A DNA stretch of 64,000 nt from a virus. The stretch is taken from UHGV virus genome UHGV-1682877; one strand, given 5' to 3'. The notes below the pieces were generated by a model. That model was not told where the DNA came from and made no database searches. It saw nothing but the letters and a program-made list of their open reading frames with translations. The translations under genes and the position numbers were made by a program. Within the stretch, counting starts at the first letter, position 1. Each line of letters starts with the position of its first letter. Positions 14,649 through 33,210 of the stretch are shown one piece after another.

Positions 14649-14724
14649 AGTGTTGTAGCTCAGTAGGTTAGAGCCAGCGACTTATAATCGCTAGACGTGG
14701 GTTCAAATCCCAACAGCACTACCA
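14649..14724 (+). tRNA. tRNA with anticodon TAT (Ile-type, reads AUA); CCA encoded
   Basis: Hand-folded cloverleaf: acceptor agtgttg/cagcact, D-stem gctc/gagc, anticodon stem agcga/tcgct with loop cTTATAa, T-loop ttcaaat. Confidence 0.7.
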
Positions 14725-14955
14725 TTAATAATTTAAATGTAATAAAAGTTTGATGTATACAAATGTTGCGTCATTTGAATCCCTCCCTTTGCTACAATCA
14801 ACGTTTGATTTACATTTGGAAAAAGTGATAGAAAATCACATGGAATTACTTTTAGCCAACCGAGTATCAATGTTATTAACTAAAACTTTTTCACTTTTAT
14901 ATTAACTTTTAAATTATATCTTTTAGTTTGCGGTCTAAATTGTAAAACCGCATAT

Positions 14956-15033
14956 GGCACTGTAGCCCAATCGGAAGCAGGCAGTAGACTTAAAATCTAT
15001 TCAGTGTGGGTTCGAGTCCCATCAGTGCTACCA
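14956..15033 (+). tRNA. atypical tRNA: anticodon TAA (Leu-type) but short variable loop; CCA encoded
   Basis: Acceptor ggcactg/cagtgct, anticodon stem gtaga/tctat with loop cTTAAAa, T-arm gtgggttcgagtcccat identical to Leu(TAA) at 25100; identity uncertain. Confidence 0.55.
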
Positions 15034-15179
15034 TCACAGATTGTTGTGCGATTTAACTGTGTTAAATAAATTAAAATCGCGTTGCACAGTTCTTCCTTTA
15101 AGGAGTAGTTATGTTATATAATGAATGAACTAAAAAATTAATACTATGTTAGAATTGTATTAATTATTAAAAATTTTGG

Positions 15180-15215
15180 TTGACTTTAATTAATAAATAT
15201 GTTATAATATTTATA
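15180..15215 (+). promoter_or_regulatory. sigma70-like promoter (-35 TTGACT 15180-15185, -10 TATAAT 15203-15208)
   Basis: Consensus -35 with 17-bp spacing. Confidence 0.65.
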
Positions 15216-15234
15216 TAAGATTAACCAAAGAAAT

Positions 15235-15316
15235 GTTGGATTGATGGAATGGTAGACATAGTAGCCTTAGAAGCTACCGCGTAAGCGTAAGAGTTCAAGT
15301 CTCTTATCCAACACCA
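15235..15316 (+). tRNA. tRNA-Leu (anticodon TAG), type II with long variable arm; CCA encoded
   Basis: Acceptor gttggat/atccaac, D-loop gaatggtaga, anticodon loop cTTAGAa, variable arm cgcgtaagcgt, T-arm aagagttcaagtctctt. Confidence 0.8.
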
Positions 15317-15340
15317 TTAGACAGACACAGCAATCTTTAT

Positions 15341-15410
15341 ACAAGTAACGACATGCAGGTTCGATTCCTGTCTTTACGCATCTGTAAAGTAGCCTATTGG
15401 TAAGGTATTT
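15341..15410 (+). ncRNA. tRNA-like element without canonical cloverleaf (T-arm gcaggttcgattcctgt, then closed hairpin ctttac/gtaaag, then D-loop-like tattggtaa)
   Basis: T-arm consensus present but no acceptor or anticodon pairing could be found; same architecture as the element at 26395-26520. Confidence 0.3.
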
Positions 15411-15442
15411 ATTTTGTTTAAAGCTGTCTAGTAAATCTCAAT

Positions 15443-15485
15443 TTGAAAAATAAAAAAAATTATGATATAATATTTATAGAAAGTT
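15443..15485 (+). promoter_or_regulatory. sigma70-like promoter (-35 TTGAAA 15443-15448, extended -10 TGATATAAT) with leader
   Basis: 17-bp spacing. Confidence 0.6.
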
Positions 15486-15497
15486 GAGGTTGATTTA

Positions 15498-15623
15498 ATG
15501 TTTTATTGGGATTCCTTTGATTGTGAAATTCAGTCTGATGAAATTGGTAGTATTACTAATCAGGAGAATGAATATGAAGAAACAGAAGAACAAGAATTTA
15601 TGGGCGAAAAAGAGTGGCGATGA
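15498..15623 (+). CDS. hypothetical small acidic protein (41 aa; weak)
   Basis: ATG 8 nt after GAGGT SD that follows the promoter; competes with the Lys-rich track ORF 15517..15726. Confidence 0.35.
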   Translation: MFYWDSFDCEIQSDEIGSITNQENEYEETEEQEFMGEKEWR

Positions 15624-15711
15624 ACTTCAAGAGTATTTGCAATTTCGCCGCAGAGGTAGTAAAGTAAAACCTAAAAAGGGCAAAGGTTCCTTTAAAAGAA
15701 AAAAGAAATTT

Positions 15712-15788
15712 GGATCCATAGCGTAATTGGTTAGCGCAACGGACTGTTAATCCGTGGGTTGTTCGTTCAAGTCGAACTGGATCCGCCA
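15712..15788 (+). tRNA. tRNA-Asn (anticodon GTT); CCA encoded
   Basis: Acceptor ggatcca/tggatcc, anticodon stem acgga/tccgt with loop cTGTTAa, T-arm gttcgttcaagtcgaac. Confidence 0.85.
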
Positions 15789-15801
15789 TATATTTTAATT
15801 A

Positions 15802-15877
15802 GCTCCTATCGACAAGTTGGTTAAGTCGCTAGCCCTTCAAGCTAGAGTCGCGGGATCGTAGCCCGCTAGGAGTACCA
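15802..15877 (+). tRNA. tRNA-Glu-like (anticodon TTC), non-canonical T-loop; CCA encoded
   Basis: Acceptor gctccta/taggagt, anticodon stem ctagc/gctag with loop ccTTCaa, T-arm gcggg-atcgtag-cccgc. Confidence 0.55.
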
Positions 15878-15956
15878 TAATGAAAGACACATACAGCAAT
15901 TTATTTAATATTATAAAAAATGGCAGAAAATTTTTATACAAGTGTCTTGTTTATAT

Positions 15957-16013
15957 ATTGCAGGCAGGTTAAAGCCCTGTGCGTCGCTGGTTCAAATCCA
16001 GCCTGTGATACCA
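15957..16013 (+). ncRNA. tRNA-like mini-element (T-arm gctggttcaaatccagc plus short hairpin; no D-arm found)
   Basis: T-arm consensus and terminal CCA seen, but no full cloverleaf could be built. Confidence 0.25.
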
Positions 16014-16014
16014 T

Positions 16015-16087
16015 TGCGGAGTAGAGAAACGGTTATCTCGCAACCCTCATAAGGTTGAGAAAGGTGGTTCGACTCCATCCTCTCGCA
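16015..16087 (+). tRNA. tRNA with anticodon CAT (Met or lysidine-Ile2 type)
   Basis: D-stem gaga/tctc, anticodon stem caacc/ggttg with loop cTCATaa, T-arm ggtggttcgactccatc; acceptor pairing imperfect, so ends are approximate. Confidence 0.6.
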
Positions 16088-16209
16088 GAGACATAATCAA
16101 CCACCTCCACGCGGTATGTCTTGGGTAAAGCGAACGGTTGAATGATTTTGGGTACATTTGGATAATTTAGTAGCCAAAAAAACTCCATAATATAATGGAG
16201 GGATGTATA

Positions 16210-25099: not shown

Positions 25100-25185
25100 G
25101 TGGGCGTGATGAAATAGGAAAACATATCGCACTTAAAATGCGCTGCTAATCTAGCTTGTGGGTTCGAGTCCCATCGCCCACACCA
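25100..25185 (+). tRNA. tRNA-Leu (anticodon TAA), type II; CCA encoded
   Basis: Acceptor gtgggcg/cgcccac, anticodon loop cTTAAAa, variable-arm hairpin gcta-atc-tagc, T-arm gtgggttcgagtcccat. Confidence 0.7.
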
Positions 25186-25250
25186 TCTTTAAAACTGATA
25201 CTCTTTACTATTAGTTTTAAAGATAACAATGAACTTGAGTTTACTGATAT

Positions 25251-25327
25251 GCGTCTGTAACTCAACTGGATAGAGTAACTGCCTTCTAAGCAGTAAGCCA
25301 GGGGTTCGAGTCCCTTCAGGCGTACCA
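25251..25327 (+). tRNA. tRNA-Arg (anticodon TCT); CCA encoded
   Basis: Acceptor gcgtctg/caggcgt, D-stem actc/gagt, anticodon stem actgc/gcagt with loop cTTCTAa, T-arm aggggttcgagtccctt. Confidence 0.8.
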
Positions 25328-25329
25328 AG

Positions 25330-25512
25330 CAGAACTATAATAGGCAACAAAAGGAAATAGCTGATGTGAAAGGCATCTTGTCTTGCTGACATGACAATAA
25401 ACTTTGAACGGGCGTATAATGCGTATCGTGCCTGCGGGTGTAGAGTCAGAAAAGTAGGGGAATAATTGAGGAGCAGCTATAGGTGAGGCCCCACCTCCAC
25501 CTTCCTTAATAT
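25330..25512 (+). ncRNA. GC-enriched non-coding segment between tRNA-Arg and tRNA-Ser; candidate structured RNA of unknown class
   Basis: No + strand ORF with SD; several GC-rich hairpins such as aggtgagg-cccc-acctccacc. Confidence 0.3.
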
Positions 25513-25604
25513 GGGGCAATGGCAGAGTTTGGCTTATTGCACTTGTCTTGAAAACAAGCAAACTAGCAATAGTTTCACTGGTTCAAATCCAGTTTGCCCC
25601 GCCA
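25513..25604 (+). tRNA. tRNA-Ser (anticodon TGA), type II; CCA encoded
   Basis: Acceptor ggggcaa/ttgcccc, anticodon stem cttgt/acaag with loop cTTGAAa, long variable arm, T-arm actggttcaaatccagt. Confidence 0.8.
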
Positions 25605-25608
25605 ATAA

Positions 25609-25682
25609 GCAGGTATAGTTTAATGATAGAACTCTGGACTTCCACTCCAGCGATGCGGGTTTGATTCCCGTTACTTGCTCCA
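25609..25682 (+). tRNA. tRNA-Gly (anticodon TCC); CCA encoded
   Basis: Acceptor gcaggta/tacttgc, anticodon stem ctgga/tccag with loop cTTCCAc, T-arm gcgggtttgattcccgt. Confidence 0.8.
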
Positions 25683-25745
25683 TAAAGATACTCACAGCAA
25701 TTTATTTTTTATAATGGGTATAAAAAAATAAAGTATCTTGTATTT

Positions 25746-25821
25746 GCTAACGTGGCGCAACAGGTAGCGCAGCGGCCTTGTAAACCGCAGGTTAAGAGTT
25801 CAAGTCTCTTCGTTAGCTCCA
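25746..25821 (+). tRNA. tRNA-Thr (anticodon TGT); CCA encoded
   Basis: Acceptor gctaacg/cgttagc, anticodon stem gcggc/accgc with loop cTTGTAa, T-arm aagagttcaagtctctt. Confidence 0.85.
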
Positions 25822-25823
25822 AT

Positions 25824-25899
25824 GGTTCGCTAGTTCATTAGGTAGAACACTTGCCTTTTAAGCAAGATGTGCTGGGTTCAAATCCCAGGCGAGCCACCA
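25824..25899 (+). tRNA. tRNA-Lys (anticodon TTT); CCA encoded
   Basis: Acceptor ggttcgc/gcgagcc, D-stem gttc/gaac, anticodon stem cttgc/gcaag with loop cTTTTAa, T-arm ctgggttcaaatcccag. Confidence 0.85.
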
Positions 25900-26274
25900 T
25901 TAGTCTTATCATACAGACGTAAAATAAATGAGTACCCCAGATAATGCTGAACTGGGTATCCGGGTATCGGGAGAATTAGTCTGGCAACTGTTGAAGCGAC
26001 GATACTGCGTGACCAGGCATAAGGGCGACCTAAGTCGTTAGCTATGGGTAAACAGGTTGATAGCCGCATAGTAAAATGTTTCCTTGCGTCATTAAAATGC
26101 AAGGCGTTATAGGAGAGACGGCGGAGCATTACTCATCTCCACTCCTTCTGCTACGAGAAGTAGAAAATCAAGGCTTCTGAGAAATGCTAATGAGAATGGT
26201 CAACCTCTGATTAAAAAAGGACTAAAGCTAGCTTAGGTTTTAGGTTATCCTCCTTACGAGGGAAAACCTTATTT
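25900..26274 (+). ncRNA. approximately 375-nt GC-enriched non-coding segment between tRNA-Lys and tRNA-Leu(CAA); candidate structured RNA of unknown class
   Basis: No credible + strand ORF; GC content visibly above surroundings; not tmRNA-like and lacks RNase P P4 motifs by eye. Confidence 0.3.
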
Positions 26275-26358
26275 GCCAGAATGTTGGAATTGGTAGACAA
26301 AGAAGTCTCAAAAACTTTCGCTTTATGCGTGCGGGTTCGAATCCCGCTTCTGGTACCA
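26275..26358 (+). tRNA. tRNA-Leu (anticodon CAA), type II; CCA encoded
   Basis: Acceptor gccagaa/ttctggt, D-loop gaattggtaga, anticodon stem gaagt/acttt with loop cTCAAAa, variable arm cgctttatgcgtg, T-arm gcgggttcgaatcccgc. Confidence 0.8.
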
Positions 26359-26570: not shown

Positions 26571-28094
26571 ATGGAAAATAAGATGCTTAATATTTTGAAG
26601 GAAAAGAATACTCATTCTATCACTGAGAACGGCGGTTTGACTTATAATTCTACTATGAATGGAATTATGGATTTGTTTGCTCTTGGTGGTGCTTATCGAA
26701 ATCGCTCAGATGATGATTGTATTTTTCTTTTTAAGAAGGCTTTTGAGGAAGATATTTCTTATGCTTTGAAGTGTCTCTTTTATTTGCGAGACGTACGCGG
26801 TGGACAGGGAGAACGCAGATTTTTTAAGGTCGTAACTTCTTGGTTGGCAGTTAATCACACCGAGGAAATGCGTAGAAATCTGAAGTATGTTCCTGAGTAT
26901 GGTCGCTGGGATGATTTGTATGCTTTTGTTGATACTCCGCTTGAGGCAGATGCTTTTAAGACTATGTATCATCAGCTTGCTCTTGATGTTCAGTGTAAAA
27001 CTCCTTCTCTTTTGGCTAAGTGGTTGAAGTCTGAAAATACTTCTTCTGCAGAATCTCGTATGCTTGGAGCTAAAACCAGAATGGCTTTTAATATGTCTCC
27101 TAAGCAGTATCGCAAGATTCTCTCTATTCTTCGTGAAAGAATTAGAGTTTTGGAAAGACTGATGAGTGAAAACCGTTGGGATGAAATTGAATTTGATAAG
27201 ATTCCTTCTAAGGCAGGTCTAAAGTATCGCAATGCTTTTGCAAAGCACGATATTGAAAGAGAAAAGTCTAATAAGGTAACTTATGAAGAGTTTGTAAAGG
27301 ATTCTAATACTAAGGTCAATGCTGATACTTTGAATCCCGCAGATGTAGTTCATGCTGTTGTTTCTAAATTTCCCTATTATAGAGGAAATTTTAATGGAAC
27401 TGATGTGGAGAGAGCTGCACTCAATAAGTATTGGGATAATCTAAAGGATTATTTTAATAATGCTGTTTTTGACGGTGTTGCTGTCGTTGATACTTCTGGT
27501 TCTATGTGTGGTTTTTATGGTAGTGAGAAAACTATTGCACCTATTGATGTAGCTATTTCTCTTGGTATGTATTGTGCTGAGAAGTGTAATCCCAATTCTC
27601 CCTGGTATGGACATTATATTACTTTTTCCCGAACTGCAAGATTGGTACCTGTTGAAGGTATTGATTTTGTTGATAAGGTGCGTAGAATTTATCAAAAGAA
27701 TCTTTGTGAGAATACCAACATTAAAAGTATTTTTGATTTGCTATTGAGCAATGCTATTAAATATAATATTCCTAATGAAGAAATGCCTAAAAACATTGTA
27801 ATCATTAGTGATATGGAATTTGATTATTGCGCTGGTTACTATAATAGTGATGAATACAAGTCTGAAATGGAAAAGATTATGCAAGTTTGGAACTCTCATG
27901 GTTACACTACTCCACATTTGATTTTCTGGAATGTTGACGCTCGAAATGATAATATTCCCATGAAGATGAAGGATGGTATTACTTTTATTTCTGGTTATTC
28001 TGCGGTAACTTATGAAATGTTGATGACTGGTAAAACTGGTTTTGATTTGGTTTTGGAAAAGTTGAACAATAAGAGATATGAGGTAATCAAGTAA
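26571..28094 (+). CDS. vWA-domain protein with Ro60/Rsr-like (TROVE + vWA) architecture
   Basis: 507 aa; MIDAS-type VVDTSGSM about 300 aa from N-terminus; N-terminal ENGGLTY ... LGGAYR resembles TROVE start; AAAAGGAGAA SD. Confidence 0.5.
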   Translation: MENKMLNILKEKNTHSITENGGLTYNSTMNGIMDLFALGGAYRNRSDDDCIFLFKKAFEEDISYALKCLFYLRDVRGGQGERRFFKVVTSWLAVNHTEEMRRNLKYVPEYGRWDDLYAFVDTPLEADAFKTMYHQLALDVQCKTPSLLAKWLKSENTSSAESRMLGAKTRMAFNMSPKQYRKILSILRERIRVLERLMSENRWDEIEFDKIPSKAGLKYRNAFAKHDIEREKSNKVTYEEFVKDSNTKVNADTLNPADVVHAVVSKFPYYRGNFNGTDVERAALNKYWDNLKDYFNNAVFDGVAVVDTSGSMCGFYGSEKTIAPIDVAISLGMYCAEKCNPNSPWYGHYITFSRTARLVPVEGIDFVDKVRRIYQKNLCENTNIKSIFDLLLSNAIKYNIPNEEMPKNIVIISDMEFDYCAGYYNSDEYKSEMEKIMQVWNSHGYTTPHLIFWNVDARNDNIPMKMKDGITFISGYSAVTYEMLMTGKTGFDLVLEKLNNKRYEVIK

Positions 28095-28105
28095 ATAGTA
28101 TTTTA

Positions 28106-28134
28106 AGAGAGGTAAAATTACCTCTCTTTTTTTA
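28106..28134 (+). terminator. rho-independent terminator (agagaggta / tacctctct + T-run)
   Basis: Read directly. Confidence 0.7.
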
Positions 28135-28148
28135 TAAGGAGGATTAAA

Positions 28149-29210
28149 ATGATATTATTAAATGATGATAATAGACACAGAGATTTTACAGGTGTAACTC
28201 GTTTTCACAATGCAGGTTATTTTGGAGAAAGAGTAAATGCCGCAAGTGGAGAAACCTGGGATGTTAATAGATATAATCCAGATAATTTAGTAAGAAATTG
28301 CTTAAAGGATAAACAATTTTCAGATGAACATCCAATAAATACTGCGGCAACATTTTTTCAAGTAGCTCCAAAAGCTCATCTATTTATGCTTTATTCCATT
28401 GATGGCAGTTATGGTAGTGGAGATAATTATAACTCTAAATTTTTTAATGAATCAGTAGAAATTATTGAAAAATATAATATTACTAATATGTTTACCTCTT
28501 TAAATTGTAGTAGACATACTAAATTTTTTGAAGATTTAAAAAATTGGTATATTAAACATCCTAGTTTTAAACCCTTTTGGTGCGCAGGAAATGATTCTTC
28601 TAAAAAATATAATCCAATTATGGAAATTGAAGAAGTAATTGGTGTAGCCGCTTATACTTTAATGGTAAATGGTACAGTAAATCCTGCTTATTATTCTAGT
28701 ATTAGTAGTTATGTAGACTTTTCTGCACCTAGTATGATTTATTTAAATCCGCAAGCTACAAAACCAGACGCAGCAACTTATTCCAATTCTGGTACTTCTT
28801 TTTCTACACCTTGGTTATGTGGAATGAGCTGTTTAGTAGATGATTTCTTTATTGATAAAAAAGGATTACCTCTAACAAGAGAAGGAATGATTCAATTCTT
28901 TAAAGATAATTGTAAAGATATAGGCGATAAGGGTATTGATCCAAAAACAGGATTTGGCGCAGTAATTTTACCTGAACCAAATTCTATTGATATTGATAAA
29001 TATTATAATATTGGGAGGACAAATATGAGTACATTAGATAAATTTAAAGATAAAAATGATATTTCTAATTGGGCTAAAGCAAGTATTGAATGGGCTGTTA
29101 ATACAGGTATTCTTCAAGGTGACGATAAAGGCTATCTTTTACCCAAAGCTTACCTAACTAGAGAGCAAATGGCAGTTATGTTAGAGCGTTTTAAAAATAT
29201 TATAAAATAA
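28149..29210 (+). CDS. subtilisin-like serine protease (S8) with C-terminal SLH-like cell-wall-binding domain
   Basis: GTSFSTPW matches subtilase Ser motif; C-terminal W..A...G...GD..G...P...LTREQ..VMLERF is SLH-like and paralogous to the C-terminus of the 36251 ORF. Confidence 0.6.
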   Translation: MILLNDDNRHRDFTGVTRFHNAGYFGERVNAASGETWDVNRYNPDNLVRNCLKDKQFSDEHPINTAATFFQVAPKAHLFMLYSIDGSYGSGDNYNSKFFNESVEIIEKYNITNMFTSLNCSRHTKFFEDLKNWYIKHPSFKPFWCAGNDSSKKYNPIMEIEEVIGVAAYTLMVNGTVNPAYYSSISSYVDFSAPSMIYLNPQATKPDAATYSNSGTSFSTPWLCGMSCLVDDFFIDKKGLPLTREGMIQFFKDNCKDIGDKGIDPKTGFGAVILPEPNSIDIDKYYNIGRTNMSTLDKFKDKNDISNWAKASIEWAVNTGILQGDDKGYLLPKAYLTREQMAVMLERFKNIIK

Positions 29211-29214
29211 TTTT

Positions 29215-29247
29215 AAGGGAGTCAAAATGACTCCCTTTTTATTTTTT
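29215..29247 (+). terminator. rho-independent terminator (aagggagtc / gactccctt + T-run)
   Basis: Read directly. Confidence 0.7.
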
Positions 29248-29285
29248 TAAAAAAATATTATATAATATATATAGAAAGTTAAGGA
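29240..29285 (+). promoter_or_regulatory. sigma70-like promoter (-10 TATAAT 29261-29266) with leader
   Basis: Family consensus. Confidence 0.55.
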
Positions 29286-29315
29286 ATAAATAAATAAGAA
29301 AGAAGTTGAAATTTT

Positions 29316-29585
29316 ATGATTTATAGAAAAAGCAAATACAGTAAAGATCAGACTGCAATTTGGCAAGGTGAAACTGCGGTTATTCTTGCTCAATCAGCAG
29401 AAGCTATGACAATAGATGAAATTAAAAACAATAGTATTCAATTAACAGGTGTTTCTACTCAAAAAATGGCTAGGATTCTTGGGCATTTGATTGAAATGGG
29501 TATGGTAACAAAAGCAAAAAGCAAAAGTGGAAAAATGGTCTATAAATCTTTGGCAGTAATGGAAATGCAAGGTTATGAAATTTAA
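29316..29585 (+). CDS. hypothetical protein
   Basis: 89-aa ORF; SD AAGAAAGAAG. Confidence 0.5.
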   Translation: MIYRKSKYSKDQTAIWQGETAVILAQSAEAMTIDEIKNNSIQLTGVSTQKMARILGHLIEMGMVTKAKSKSGKMVYKSLAVMEMQGYEI

Positions 29586-29604
29586 ATAAAGGAGTTTGAT
29601 ATTT

Positions 29605-30873
29605 ATGGCATACTATGGTTTAGTAACTAAAATTGAAAATGTAAGAAAAGACCCTAATTCTGATAGACTCTATTTGGCTGATTGTTTTAGAGAAGGAGTT
29701 ATTGTAGGCCCTAATATGAAGGAAAGCGAGTTGGTTCTTTATCTTCCTACTGATGGAGCTATTGAGCGTTGGTTTGGTGATGAGTTTAAACTTTTCCGCA
29801 AGAATTTAGATGGTACCGCGCAAGGTGGTTATTTGGAAAATAATGCTCATATTAGAGCAATTAAGCTAAGAGGTAATGAATCTTCTGGTATTGTTATTTC
29901 TTATTCTACTATTGTTGAGCATTTTGGTGAGCAAAATTGGAAAGATGGCGATCAGGTCACTGAAATTAATAATAAGCTATTTTGTTATAAATATATTCCT
30001 AAACCTTCGGCTATTCCTCGCACTACTCCTAAAACTTCTTATAAAGGTCGTAAAGCAGCTGGAATTAAGTATCCTGATTTTGCCATGCATATTGATACTG
30101 CCCAATTAGCTTACAATCTTGGAATTTTTAGACCTGGAGATAAAATTAATCTAACCCTTAAAATGCATGGAACTAGCCAGCGTAGTGCATATACTTGGGC
30201 AGAATATCCTATGTCTTGGTTTAGAAAGCTATTTCACATGAAACCTAAGAGAAAGTTGCAGTATGTTTTAGGTACTCGTAGAACTGTTGTTACTACTGAT
30301 GGGGTAGGTTATTATGGTAATGACAAATTTAGATTTAGTCACCATGAAGCTTTAAAACCTTATCTCGATGAAGGTATGGAAGTTTTTTATGAAGTAGTTG
30401 GTTGGTATGGAGCAAAAGAAAATGAAACTATTATGCCAATTGTAGATAATAGTAAAATTAATGACAAGAAATTTATGAAAAAGTTTGGTAAGTATACTAC
30501 TTTTTCTTATGGTTGTACTCCTGGTCATTCTGCAATGTGGATTTATAGAATTACTTCTCATAATGGTGAATATGAATATTCTCCAGAGGAAATTACTACT
30601 TGGTGTAATGAATATGGTTTTAATCGTGTTCCTATTATTGAGGATTTTGAATTTACTACTGTTGATGACTTGCTCGCTAAAATTGACAAATATTTTGAAG
30701 ATATTGTTGACCCAGTTGGTTTAACTCATGTTAAAGAAGGTGTAGTAGTTAGAATTGCTAATAGACGTACTTTTACTGCATTAAAACAAAAAACCTGGGA
30801 GTTTAAAGTCCTTGAAGGTCTAGTTAAAGATACTGAAACCCAGCCCGATATGGAAGAAGCACAGGAGGTTTAA
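29605..30873 (+). CDS. ATP-dependent RNA ligase-like protein (Rnl2/Rnl5-type KxHGT motif) with N-terminal extra domain
   Basis: KMHGTS resembles nucleotidyltransferase motif I of T4 Rnl2 (KIHGTN); N-terminal region has OB/tRNA-binding-like motif IKLRGNESSGIV; ATG 29605 after AAAGGAG. Confidence 0.5.
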   Translation: MAYYGLVTKIENVRKDPNSDRLYLADCFREGVIVGPNMKESELVLYLPTDGAIERWFGDEFKLFRKNLDGTAQGGYLENNAHIRAIKLRGNESSGIVISYSTIVEHFGEQNWKDGDQVTEINNKLFCYKYIPKPSAIPRTTPKTSYKGRKAAGIKYPDFAMHIDTAQLAYNLGIFRPGDKINLTLKMHGTSQRSAYTWAEYPMSWFRKLFHMKPKRKLQYVLGTRRTVVTTDGVGYYGNDKFRFSHHEALKPYLDEGMEVFYEVVGWYGAKENETIMPIVDNSKINDKKFMKKFGKYTTFSYGCTPGHSAMWIYRITSHNGEYEYSPEEITTWCNEYGFNRVPIIEDFEFTTVDDLLAKIDKYFEDIVDPVGLTHVKEGVVVRIANRRTFTALKQKTWEFKVLEGLVKDTETQPDMEEAQEV

Positions 30874-30875
30874 AT

Positions 30876-31325
30876 ATGACTTTAGAAATTATGCACAATG
30901 ACATGATGCAGGCTTTGAAGAATGGTGATACTCAAAAGAAGAATGTACTTTCCAATATGATTGGTGAAGTACAAAAAGCAGCAATTACGCCAAAAGGCAG
31001 AATTGAAATTACCGAAGAGCTTGTTAATAATACTTTAATCAAGTATCAAAAGATGATTCAAGAAATGATTGATACTTGTCCAGAAAACCGCAAAGAGTTA
31101 TTTATTCAATATAATCTTGATATGGCTGTTGTAAAGCAGTATGCACCACAACTTCTCACTGACAAAAAAGCAATTAAAACTCAAATTGAAAAGATGCTTG
31201 CAGAAAATGAGCTTGATGCAATTAAGGCAAATAAAGGTAGAGCAATGAAACTTTTTGCTCCTGTTTTTAAGGGTAAGGCAGATATGAAAATTGTTAATCA
31301 AATTGTGTCGGAGGTAATGACCTAA
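30876..31325 (+). CDS. GatB/YqeY-domain protein
   Basis: N-terminus and length typical of YqeY-like proteins; CAGGAGG SD. Confidence 0.45.
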   Translation: MTLEIMHNDMMQALKNGDTQKKNVLSNMIGEVQKAAITPKGRIEITEELVNNTLIKYQKMIQEMIDTCPENRKELFIQYNLDMAVVKQYAPQLLTDKKAIKTQIEKMLAENELDAIKANKGRAMKLFAPVFKGKADMKIVNQIVSEVMT

Positions 31326-31326
31326 T

Positions 31327-31506
31327 ATGTTTCATTTAATAATGACGATTATTTGGGGTATCTTAATGTGTGTTAATGGAGTTTTGCTATGTGAAACAAT
31401 TTTACACAATAGATATAAAGAAAAGAAAATGCGTATTTTCTGGTTCCTTTTTTGCGTATTTTGGTTTATTTTTGAAATCTTGCGGCTCGGAGGCTTTATT
31501 CTTTGA
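31327..31506 (+). CDS. hypothetical small membrane protein (59 aa)
   Basis: ATG 1 nt after previous stop; two hydrophobic segments. Confidence 0.4.
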   Translation: MFHLIMTIIWGILMCVNGVLLCETILHNRYKEKKMRIFWFLFCVFWFIFEILRLGGFIL

Positions 31507-31721
31507 AAATTGTAATTGATAAAAAAGATTTTATGGAATATATTCGTGCTATGGTAGATAAGGATTTTGACAATTTTATGTTTGCAAATCCTTATGCGAC
31601 GAAAGAAGATTATATTAATTTATATTATTCTTTTGATACAATTCATAATTTAGATGATATTTGTGAAGAAGAATATTGTAAAAGAATTATTAATGGTGAA
31701 ATAGAAGAAATTGAAGATTGA
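31503..31721 (+). CDS. hypothetical protein (TTG start)
   Basis: 72-aa ORF; acidic. Confidence 0.4.
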   Translation: MKIVIDKKDFMEYIRAMVDKDFDNFMFANPYATKEDYINLYYSFDTIHNLDDICEEEYCKRIINGEIEEIED

Positions 31722-31725
31722 AAGA

Positions 31726-31770
31726 ATTAAGGGCAAAGATTAAGATCTTTTGCCCTTAATTTATTTTTTT
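31726..31770 (+). terminator. rho-independent terminator (ttaagggcaaaagat / atcttttgcccttaa + T-run)
   Basis: Read directly. Confidence 0.7.
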
Positions 31771-31805
31771 AAAAATTTATATTATAATATATATAGAAAG
31801 TTAAG
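31762..31805 (+). promoter_or_regulatory. sigma70-like promoter (-10 TATAAT 31783-31788) with leader
   Basis: Family consensus. Confidence 0.55.
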
Positions 31806-31821
31806 AAAGGAATTGATATTT

Positions 31822-32535
31822 ATGAATAAGAGTAAAGTTTATTGTTTTACTGACCTTCATGGCAATTCAAATTTGTTTAAGCAGATTAAAAATTTCATTC
31901 AAGCAGAAGATAAAGTGTTCGTGCTGGGTGATGTAATTGACAGAGGGACAGAAGGTTGGAAAATACTTAAAGAAATTTTAAAAGATGAAAGATTTACTCT
32001 TCTTAAAGGAAATCATGAACAAATGTTAGTAGATTCTGGAAGAGAATTTTTAAAAAATGAAAGATGTCTATATGGAGATGATATTTATCGTCACATGAAT
32101 AATGGAGGTTTATCTACTTTACTAGACTGGTCTAAAGAAAAAAATGCTATTGAGTATTTAAATTTAATTAATAAACTTCCAGTTTATGAACAATACACTA
32201 ATAAAAATGGAATTAAAATTCATTTAAGTCATGCAGGTTTTTCTCCTAATAATATTTCTGGTGATGAATTTGATTTTCTTTGGAATAGATTACATTATAA
32301 ATTTAGATGTTTAATTAATCCAAATGAATTAATTATTCATGGCCATACCCCAATTCCTCTAATGATAGAAGATATAGGAGAATTTCGCAATCCTCCCAAA
32401 TATGAAGGTGGAGCTTGTTGGTATAATAATAATCAAAAGGTTAATCTTGATTTAGGTACTCATTGGAGTAAGCAAATTATCCTTTTTGATTTAGATACTT
32501 TTGATGAACATATCTTTTCTGCTCAAGGAGAATAA
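31822..32535 (+). CDS. calcineurin-like metallophosphoesterase
   Basis: TDLHGN, GDVIDRG and GNHE motifs; internal ATG of track ORF 31750..32535 follows AAGAAAGGA SD. Confidence 0.7.
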   Translation: MNKSKVYCFTDLHGNSNLFKQIKNFIQAEDKVFVLGDVIDRGTEGWKILKEILKDERFTLLKGNHEQMLVDSGREFLKNERCLYGDDIYRHMNNGGLSTLLDWSKEKNAIEYLNLINKLPVYEQYTNKNGIKIHLSHAGFSPNNISGDEFDFLWNRLHYKFRCLINPNELIIHGHTPIPLMIEDIGEFRNPPKYEGGACWYNNNQKVNLDLGTHWSKQIILFDLDTFDEHIFSAQGE

Positions 32536-32537
32536 TT

Positions 32538-32942
32538 ATGATACTATTAATACTAGGATTAACATTACCTTTTACTGGAGCAATAATTTTAGGTTGTTTT
32601 ATATATGATTATGATGAATATAAACTAGATTGTAAAATTGTAAGGAAACATAAATATGTAGTTTTAAAATTAAAAGAATTTATTTCTTTCTATAATTTAA
32701 GTCCAGAAAATTATGAACTACAAAAATATTCGGTTGTTTTTTTAAAGCCTTTCTCTACACGAAAATATTTAACAGACAATAATATACGTATTATTTTTAC
32801 AAATTATGTAGAAATGTTAAAATATAAAATTTGGAAAAAGACAGAAATTAAAAAAATAAATACAGAAAAAGAAAGAAAAGAACTTAAAGAATATTTTGAA
32901 ATTGTAAAAAAACAAATTGAGGAGTTTGATAAAAATGTCTAA
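32538..32942 (+). CDS. hypothetical protein
   Basis: 134-aa ORF; AAGGAGAA SD. Confidence 0.55.
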   Translation: MILLILGLTLPFTGAIILGCFIYDYDEYKLDCKIVRKHKYVVLKLKEFISFYNLSPENYELQKYSVVFLKPFSTRKYLTDNNIRIIFTNYVEMLKYKIWKKTEIKKINTEKERKELKEYFEIVKKQIEEFDKNV

Positions 32943-33210
32943 AGACCCTAGAAAATATGAAATGCATGATTTTTATTGTATGAATTGCGGAAAGAAGTCA
33001 ATGTCAATTCCTCGATTAAGAGGACGTTTTAGAGAAGTTGGGCATAAGAAAGTTATGTATTGCCCTCATTGTAAAGAAACTGTTAATATGGTAGAATGTA
33101 GAAATGATGAAGAAGCGTATAATTTTAAACTAGATTTTGAAGAAGGACTTTTTAAAGAAGAAGCACAAAATAGTATTTCTTATGTAAAGGAGTTTGGTAT
33201 TTATGATTAA
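32917..33210 (+). CDS. hypothetical zinc-ribbon protein
   Basis: CMNCG ... CPHC. Confidence 0.5.
   Translation: MRSLIKMSKDPRKYEMHDFYCMNCGKKSMSIPRLRGRFREVGHKKVMYCPHCKETVNMVECRNDEEAYNFKLDFEEGLFKEEAQNSISYVKEFGIYD

Follow-up and report, generated by a model that had tools for sequence, protein, structure and literature searches.

A Glu-His-Ser subtilase-fold protein and a putative endolysin with homologous SLH tails: candidate wall-targeted lysis enzymes of a gut phage

The 64,000-nucleotide (nt) stretch of virus genome UHGV-1682877 analyzed here (the window) encodes two proteins that each end in one surface-layer (S-layer) homology domain (SLH; Pfam PF00395): open reading frame (ORF) A, a subtilase-fold protein, and ORF B, a putative endolysin. 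We give about an even chance to the reading that they are two wall-targeted enzymes of the phage's holin-dependent lysis system, with ORF A as an accessory protease. Its core claim, a wall-targeted, holin-dependent lysis enzyme, is likely; that the substrate of ORF A is an SLH-anchored surface or S-layer protein is a tentative proposal, short of an even chance. An earlier, sequence-only reading had noticed the protease, the lysin and their similar tails, but missed that the protease clade sits in phage lysis cassettes beside holins and conventional lysins.

With a strong ribosome-binding site and hairpins called on both sides, ORF A looks monocistronic. The gene and its catalytic domain comprise the following features, the active-site positions being taken from a profile-to-PDB alignment with subtilisin BPN′:

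28105..28128, + strand: terminator-like hairpin with a 10-bp stem and T-run, between the DUF2828/DUF7788 gene and ORF A (consensus scan)
28136..28142, + strand: ribosome-binding site AAGGAGG, 6 nt 5′ of the ORF A ATG, read from the sequence
28149..29210, + strand: ORF A, 353 amino acids (aa), Glu-His-Ser subtilase with one SLH domain at its C-terminus, without signal peptide or transmembrane segment
28152..29018, + strand: subtilisin-fold catalytic domain, about residues 2-290
28251-28253: E35, at the position of BPN′ D32
28329-28331: H61, at the position of BPN′ H64
28590-28592: N148, at the position of BPN′ N155 (oxyanion hole)
28797-28799: S217, at the position of BPN′ S221
29215..29237, + strand: terminator-like hairpin, 5 nt past the ORF A stop (consensus scan)

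Terminator-like sites were called by consensus scan only (9 in the region vs 2.9 ± 2.1 in shuffles). Promoter-like sites were no commoner than in shuffles (67 vs 57 ± 8) and were not used.

The proposal that ORF A is a subtilisin-like serine protease stands as far as the fold is concerned, but one defining catalytic residue differs. Pfam Peptidase_S8 covers the C-terminal half of the domain alone (26.6 bits, cut-off 21.8), and a profile of 29 ORF A relatives aligned with subtilisin BPN′ over the whole domain (E = 5.6e-18). The AlphaFold2 model (predicted local distance difference test, pLDDT, 93.8; predicted template modeling score, pTM, 0.84) matched more than 50 subtilisins in Foldseek with probability 1.00 and template modeling (TM) scores of 0.72-0.75 on the target, among them 1gnv (E = 2.5e-15, TM 0.72 on the target). 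NCBIfam gave sub-threshold matches only, and PHROGs a weak 'protease' match and an SLH-bearing 'tail' profile, neither of them informative. Of the canonical Asp-His-Ser triad of Peptidase S8, His61 and Ser217 are in register and Glu35 replaces Asp; ORF A is therefore filed here as a subtilase-fold variant and not as a canonical S8 member.

This replacement is a property of the whole clade. E35 aligns with D32 gap-free from the HxxGYxG motif 15 residues upstream, and Glu occupies the position in 46/46 close and 93/93 extended relatives covering the site. The oxyanion Asn was found in all 47 sequences of the close-relative alignment and is Asp in one of 96 extended relatives, while the complete H20-E35-H61-N148-S217 pattern is intact in 88 of these 96. 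Conserved Glu, His, Asn, and Ser down to about 25% identity argue for what would be an active enzyme. ORF A begins at about residue 10 of mature subtilisin; across the clade the S8 domain starts at a median of residue 3, which leaves no room for an I9 propeptide, and a signal-peptide-like hydrophobic N-terminus was found in none of 92 members. The closest solved structures to the model are engineered calcium-independent subtilisins without the calcium-site loop, which suggests that the phage enzyme, as modeled, may naturally be without the high-affinity calcium site.

The C-terminal tails of both proteins had been called SLH-like, and a Pfam search bears this out, with both domains above the curated gathering cut-off of 20.8 bits:

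29040..29174, + strand: SLH domain of ORF A, residues 298-342 (38.1 bits), with W308, GILQG and TREQ; two-helix module
36908..37009, + strand: SLH domain of ORF B, residues 220-253 (23.9 bits), with W, GLIKG and TRLE

BLASTP aligned ORF A and ORF B over their tails alone (15/43 identical, 29/43 positives, E = 2e-9). A hidden Markov model (HMM) built independently from the tails of ORF A relatives, from which ORF B was excluded to avoid circularity, also matched the ORF B tail (E = 9.3e-12 among 7,850 ORFs). A six-frame scan of the window found no third SLH copy. Both tails contain the SLH ligand motifs as defined in PMC12285257, i.e. a Trp, a GIIxG-like turn and a TRAE-like motif, which bind wall polymer in Sap, SpaA, and LysBT1 (PMC12285257). 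In the family of ORF A, 46-47 of the 47 sequences retain W308, G324, and T337-R338. The model places helices at residues 307-318 and 338-352 (pLDDT 84-93), and sequence matches of the tail in the PDB were the SLH modules of Sap (6bt4, 3pyw) and SpaA (6cwc).

The tails had also been described as clearly paralogous. By sequence comparison they are homologous, but not close paralogues. Among the 247 SLH tails gathered in this analysis, those nearest to the ORF A tail belong to other S8 proteins (46-58% identity), the ORF B tail ranking 74th, and those nearest to the ORF B tail belong to other C39 proteins. Each tail has therefore long travelled with its own catalytic domain, which points to a common target, and not to a recent duplication, as the reason for the shared anchor. 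That the tail was recently duplicated in this genome was considered and rejected on the same comparison, in which ORF A against ORF B scores 42.7 bits, about the same as ORF B against SLH1 of Bacillus anthracis Sap (41.6 bits). The further suggestion that both enzymes are aimed at the S-layer had to be amended: SLH domains dock not on the S-layer itself but on wall polymer or peptidoglycan, where S-layer proteins anchor (PMC12285257; bioRxiv 10.64898/2026.09.23.753664).

A word-indexed search for ORF A relatives returned 83 clusters, none of them named, with the S8-bearing ones from metagenome sources alone. An exhaustive search with HMMER, queried with just the S8 domain, yielded 323 representatives at 50% identity (185 at E <= 1e-10), nearly all of them metagenomic. 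Against GenBank phage records, tblastn with ORF A hit no S8 domain; its one match was the SLH tail of a lemur-gut virus lysin. A single clade member was found among catalogued viral proteins, A0A8S5T9E9, named just 'S-layer homology domain'.

In a Pfam domain census of 96 clade members, all fusion partners were wall-related. SLH was detected in 46 of the 96 by Pfam and in 62 by the independent HMM, always as a single copy and always C-terminal. Other binding modules were Cu_amine_oxidN1 (11 members), SH3_3 (seven members), LysM, and SPOR; the LysM and Cu_amine_oxidN1 variants were found on contigs of 2-4 kb, and the P0037/P0041 subgroup carries another C-terminal domain in place of SLH. The enzymatic partners comprised the phosphodiester glycosidase NAGPA (13 members), Amidase_2 (six), CHAP (two), and NlpC/P60 (two), as well as Amidase_3, Glucosaminidase, and three M15-type peptidase families, the latter with one member each. 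One protein (P0292) fuses S8 to Peptidase_C39_2, the domain type of ORF B. Long members of 700-1,400 aa have the order S8-NAGPA-(SH3)-SLH. With its modular exchange of wall-binding domains and its fusion to wall-lytic domains, the clade appears, by domain composition, to behave like a lysin module. Tandem Glu-type S8 domains ahead of NAGPA and SLH were observed in P0250, P0252, P0269, and L104:9983-13864, in proteins of up to 1,409 aa.

The genomic position of the clade points to lysis cassettes. At 14 of 19 IMG/VR loci, one or two small membrane-protein genes lie within tens of bases of the S8-SLH gene. The membrane neighbors tested were Phage_holin_1 (89-108 bits; loci L095, L099, and L102), Phage_holin_5_2 (L103), and XhlA-like proteins, the latter resembling the PBSX cassette. 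Directly past the holin, the four cassettes examined encode Amidase_2 (L095, L099), CHAP+SLH (L103), or CHAP (L105). The recurrent unit is S8-SLH / (XhlA) / holin / peptidoglycan hydrolase, and since a hydrolase follows the holin, the protease accompanies the lysin rather than taking its place. L006, a phage of 47 kb, has a Phage_holin_1 gene directly followed by one for an S8+Amidase_2+SLH protein. In phages of about 60-100 kb (L003/L004), large tail-like genes are followed by a PF06541 membrane protein, then by S8 and NAGPA-SH3-SLH and, at some distance, by CHAP. The window contains the same pair of protease and lysin, spread about 7 kb apart, and L007 likewise has an S8-SLH gene with a second SLH protein 7 kb downstream. 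As far as we found, a Glu-His-Ser subtilase clade has not been described as a lysis-cassette enzyme.

Two loci showed other arrangements of the gene. In an 81 kb relative (L005:8175-11770), an S8-NAGPA-SLH gene is apparently split by an IS605 OrfB/TnpB (Cas12f-like) gene, with a 64-aa N-terminal S8 fragment upstream and the remainder downstream. On a 274 kb contig (L001:10001-11170), the S8-SLH gene is opposite in orientation to both flanking minus-strand blocks, a stand-alone arrangement like that of the hairpin-bracketed ORF A in the window.

ORF B and a putative holin gene make up a two-gene unit. The start of ORF B is most likely the ATG at 36257 (264 aa) and not the GTG at 36251 (266 aa), because the ribosome-binding site AAAGGAGA abuts the GTG and an identical database protein (P0084) has 264 aa. 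The unit consists of:

36257..37051, + strand: ORF B, C39-like cysteine peptidase with disordered linker and single C-terminal SLH domain; putative endolysin
36263..36790, + strand: papain-like Peptidase_C39_2 domain (Pfam 49 bits, cut-off 24)
36356-36358 and 36650-36652: C36 and H134 of ORF B, which together with N149/D150 (266-aa numbering) are invariant in 18 diverse relatives
36794..36844, + strand: low-complexity Asn/Glu/Asp-rich linker, residues 182-198 (pLDDT <50)
37035..37376, + strand: 113-aa ORF, holin candidate, with a 17-nt overlap across the stop of ORF B
37386..37420, + strand: strong hairpin of terminator type (stem of 16 bp with 7 G-C pairs, and a T-run) at the end of the bicistronic unit of ORF B and the 113-aa ORF

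The identification of ORF B as an endolysin proved credible, given a Peptidase_C39_2 domain with invariant Cys and His, no signal peptide or transmembrane segment, and an overlapping membrane-protein gene; judged by its domains, it would be a modular endolysin. The C39-like domain is a recognized endolysin module (Lysin A domain N5; PMC3314691). The model comprises a papain-like core, a disordered linker, and a helical tail. Foldseek ranked the viral pseudomurein endoisopeptidase PeiR first, followed by C39 peptidase domains, at modest TM scores, and no PDB relative was detectable by sequence. Endolysins with a single C-terminal SLH were first described in 2025 (LysBT1, PMC12285257), with four lysins of Paenibacillus phages following in 2026 (bioRxiv 10.64898/2026.09.23.753664); ORF B is a further member of this known architecture.

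The 113-aa ORF has a Lys/Arg-rich N-terminus and a strong hydropathy-predicted transmembrane segment (residues 27-46), with another, weaker hydrophobic stretch. In L032, a syntenic phage of 28.7% guanine plus cytosine (GC), its counterpart (60% identity) also lies next to the lysin gene, and the order PIN-PhoH, C39-SLH, membrane ORF, RNase H, GyrB is preserved. A protein of Bajarodcaudo virus 5, 47% identical to ORF B, is annotated beside an r1t holin. The ORF B family comprises more than 1,487 clusters, with the canonical SLH tail in a subset alone. Most relatives, encoded in Oscillospiraceae-type prophages of 50-64% GC (loci L020, L023, L024, L026, L027, L028, and L036), have a shorter, degenerate SLH-like tail of the consensus EPEWSKKQGHWEKATLKGVVDGQEPERPVKRDELAAVLGRL that is not called by Pfam; several of these loci also encode, within a few kb of the lysin gene, a two-SLH protein about 480-590 aa long.

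From these data we propose the following course of events. ORF A and ORF B would be made in the cytoplasm without export signals and gain access to the wall upon breach of the membrane by a holin, for which the 113-aa ORF is the candidate. Both would then dock through their single SLH domain on a host ligand, either pyruvylated secondary wall polymer or peptidoglycan, probably as SLH-mediated homotrimers by analogy with what has been proposed for LysBT1, since a three-pronged SLH spindle takes three units, whether as tandem copies or from three single-copy chains. ORF B, as a Cys-His C39-like peptidase, would act as a conventional endolysin and cut peptidoglycan peptides. ORF A, with a Glu35-His61-Ser217 triad and the Asn148 oxyanion hole that conservation suggests to be catalytically competent, would cut a protein layer held on the wall by SLH domains, beyond the reach of peptidoglycan hydrolases. 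An SLH-anchored surface or S-layer protein is favored as its substrate because each cassette examined already has a peptidoglycan hydrolase, because the commonest enzymatic partner is NAGPA, and because subtilases are protein endopeptidases. NAGPA cleaves GlcNAc-1-phosphodiesters (PMC13474241); the literature on the function of bacterial NAGPA proved uninformative. By analogy, such chemistry would suit the sugar-phosphate link that ties secondary polymers to peptidoglycan, so that S8 and NAGPA together would dismantle an SLH-anchored layer. Possibly, the clade provides a lysis factor dedicated to a third barrier, in bacteria with an outer protein layer held by SLH domains on a secondary wall polymer; it would dock after holin action and shave the S-layer, NAGPA forms also cutting the polymer link, as a counterpart of LysB and the spanins; we regard this wider proposal as speculative and rather doubtful.

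Several observations weigh against the proposed lysis role and substrate. The partner lysins of L095 and L099 have no detectable SLH, so that not every cassette shows a shared anchor. ORF A has no holin beside it in the window, where it forms a separate hairpin-bracketed unit about 7 kb upstream and sits among RNA-repair and replication genes. The 113-aa ORF matched no family in Pfam, PHROG, or NCBIfam, and its holin call is therefore positional. A host, an S-layer, or a pyruvylated polymer could not be shown from the taxonomy of relatives. A Glu-for-Asp subtilase triad has no characterized precedent in the literature searched, where no report of one was found, although such an absence is not proof. 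Finally, the association with Amidase_2, CHAP, and C39 fits ORF A as a second peptidoglycan peptidase equally well.

This last alternative has to be taken most seriously, although we consider it unlikely. ORF A would then be a new serine-type endolysin domain cutting stem peptides or cross-bridges, and the phage would have two endolysins with the same anchor. The lysin-like build of a catalytic and a binding domain, the fusions to Amidase_2, CHAP, NlpC/P60, M15, and C39_2 as in dual-domain endolysins, the endolysin position after Phage_holin_1 in L006, and the lack of a signal peptide in ORF A and its clade all agree with it. However, we know of no subtilisin-fold enzyme that cuts peptidoglycan, and the literature search found none. 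The cassettes examined also encode a conventional hydrolase, which makes a non-redundant substrate the simpler assumption, and the commonest enzymatic partner, NAGPA, is a phosphodiester glycosidase and not a peptidoglycan hydrolase.

An improbable alternative is a virion-associated or entry-side enzyme that strips the S-layer from outside for access of the tail. Paenibacillus SLH probes failed to reach their ligand past an intact S-layer from outside (bioRxiv 10.64898/2026.09.23.753664), which speaks against it. The gene does come after large tail-like genes in L003/L004 and L005, but lysis cassettes normally come after tail genes, and the neighbors in L003/L004 are a membrane protein, NAGPA-SLH, and CHAP. 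Some members reach 700-1,400 aa, the size of tail-associated proteins, and the P0037/P0041 subgroup has exchanged SLH for another domain; yet no tail domains were detected in the long S8-NAGPA-SH3-SLH forms. Direct adjacency to a holin in most viral loci, and the position of ORF A among replication and RNA-repair genes in the window, do not fit entry either.

Quite improbable is a processing protease, acting at the wall, that activates or trims a host autolysin or another lysis protein. A precedent exists in Clostridia, where the subtilase CspB activates SleC, the cortex lytic enzyme; subtilases are typical maturation proteases, and the same SLH anchor would place ORF A next to ORF B. Nevertheless, ORF B and its relatives have no obvious pro-segment, the domain beginning at about residue 5, and fusions of the clade to many unrelated catalytic domains are hard to fit to one specific target. 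That ORF A is a catalytically dead subtilase fold serving as a binding or scaffold module, like CspC/CspA of C. difficile, would agree with the absent canonical Asp and with Pfam detecting the C-terminal half of the domain alone, but is highly improbable given that Glu, His, Asn, and Ser vary little or not at all among the 96 divergent members, which indicates selection on catalysis, and that known pseudo-subtilases lose Ser or His.

The SLH tails had been offered as a clue to the host; this clue stays generic, relatives of ORF B lying in gut Clostridia. Relatives came from gut metagenomes, namely lemur and mouse fecal viruses, human fecal contigs, and metagenome-assembled genomes (MAGs) of ruminant gut. 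A scan of GTDB found ORF B relatives in Clostridia MAGs assigned to Oscillospiraceae, 'Ruminiclostridium', Lachnospiraceae, and Anaerotignum. These MAGs were rejected as the host because the matches are mostly prophages of 50-64% GC with the degenerate tail, as opposed to a phage of 30% GC. The sole low-GC match, L032, is weak evidence, being the contig of a related phage that had been binned into a Clostridia MAG. Typical of Firmicutes are the alternative anchors found in the protease clade, i.e. Cu_amine_oxidN1, SH3_3, and LysM. A low-GC member of the gut Clostridia with an SLH-based surface is the probable host; Negativicutes or another diderm host using SLH were also considered, as OmpM uses SLH.

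The window itself covers the genome arm for replication and nucleotide metabolism in an about 138 kb phage. It has a GC content of about 30%, and its long ORFs lie nearly all on the + strand. Contigs of 137-140 kb carry clusters identical to ORF B, and one of 137,669 bp (IMGVR_UViG_3300045988_145614) encodes a protein 97% identical to ORF A. Window genes include a PolC-like polymerase, NrdD, a gyrase pair, and 17 tRNAs; NrdD points to an anaerobic habitat. Megablast of a 9 kb region against 50,697 GenBank phage records gave no match. Two further features were recorded:

14649-17659 and 25100-26358: two tRNA arrays, together 17 tRNA genes
34915-36186: PIN-domain and PhoH-like ATPase fusion, directly upstream of the lysin cassette and in the same position in L032

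One ARAGORN tRNA call (16876-16948) has a four-base anticodon (tgaa), possibly a frameshift-suppressor-like tRNA or a prediction artefact. Beside the tRNA array, an RNA-repair-like module (26571-34251) surrounds ORF A and may be a tRNA-repair counter-defense set. It comprises genes for (i) a DUF2828/DUF7788 protein (phrog_850 'RNA-binding protein'); (ii) a small winged-helix protein; (iii) an RNA ligase; (iv) a YqeY-like protein; (v) two metallophosphoesterases; and (vi) an AAA_33 kinase. Two small membrane proteins are encoded between ORF A and ORF B, one of 59 aa with two transmembrane-like segments (31327-31506) and one of 134 aa with an N-terminal transmembrane anchor (32538-32942). A sister genome (L090, 97% identical) has a 3.8 kb six-gene island (L090:11132-14946) just past the ORF A terminator, inserted at window position 29283/29301, whose ORFs are nucleotidyltransferase-like, metallophosphoesterase-like, and DnaQ-like exonuclease genes plus a small membrane protein. 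It also has another segment in place of the radical-SAM region of the window (22533-24646), and both sites are strain-variable hotspots.

Phage lysis is viewed as requiring a dedicated factor for each layer: the holin deals with the membrane, the endolysin with peptidoglycan, spanins with the outer membrane, and LysB with the mycolate layer. No counterpart has been described for the crystalline protein S-layer of many Firmicutes. A 2018 review of barrier-breaching enzymes mentions no protease, and in the literature we found no reports of S8 domains in endolysins or of phage S-layer proteases. A phage-specific, export-signal-free, wall-anchored protease clade between holin and lysin is a candidate for this missing S-layer factor. 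If this is true, the clade would add a new class of catalytic domain and a natural Glu-His-Ser subtilase to the enzybiotic and enzyme-engineering toolkits, and uncultured gut Clostridia could be probed with its SLH tails. Should ORF A instead cut peptidoglycan peptides, it would still be the first endolysin domain with a subtilisin fold.

Among characterized enzymes, the clostridial Csp proteins (CspB activates SleC) also place a subtilase in a wall-lysis pathway of Clostridia. Csp subtilases are spore proteins with a prodomain and no SLH, and have a canonical Asp-His-Ser triad or are pseudo-proteases. Unlike them, ORF A has a Glu triad, no prodomain, and an SLH anchor. With subtilisin BPN′, other S8A enzymes, and intracellular subtilisins ORF A shares the fold and, in register, the His, Ser, oxyanion Asn, and HxxGYxG motif; it differs from S8A subtilases by Glu for Asp32, the lack of signal peptide and I9 propeptide, the C-terminal SLH, and an identity of only about 17-20%, and the loop of the high-affinity calcium site is probably absent. 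Its likeness to mycobacteriophage LysB and to Gram-negative spanins is one of functional analogy alone, as an extra factor encoded alongside holin and peptidoglycan hydrolase and proposed to act on a layer that the endolysin cannot cut. LysB is an esterase and spanins fuse membranes, whereas ORF A would be a protease of unrelated fold and chemistry with a putative S-layer substrate. A0A8S5T9E9 (Siphoviridae sp. ct0Wl9) belongs to the same clade (350 aa, 40% identity, TM 0.83, S8+SLH), but it is an uncharacterized metagenomic entry whose name covers the SLH tail alone and leaves the protease part unnamed.

ORF B resembles Lysin A domain N5 (PMC3314691) and PeiR (PDB 8z4h) in using a papain- or C39-like peptidase as a viral wall-lytic domain, although its similarity to PeiR is low (TM 0.37-0.42, 19% identity) and the binding module differs. 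The closest architectural parallels are LysBT1, a prophage endolysin of Brevibacillus thermoruber whose SLH binds cells and trimerizes (PMC12285257), and the Paenibacillus thiaminolyticus phage lysins LysPt1/7/9/10, which bind through a single C-terminal SLH (bioRxiv 10.64898/2026.09.23.753664). As in these, ORF A and ORF B each combine an N-terminal catalytic domain with one C-terminal SLH carrying the Trp, GIIxG-like, and TRAE-like motifs; in the known lysins the SLH binds the wall (and in LysBT1 also trimerizes), and the gene lies in a holin-containing cassette. Unlike the LysBT1 and LysPt amidases and classic peptidoglycan hydrolases, the catalytic domains here are of the C39-like peptidase type in ORF B and of the subtilase type in ORF A, and whereas the LysBT1 and LysPt hosts are aerobic Bacillales, the 138 kb phage described here is an uncultured virus of an anaerobic gut community, known from sequence alone.

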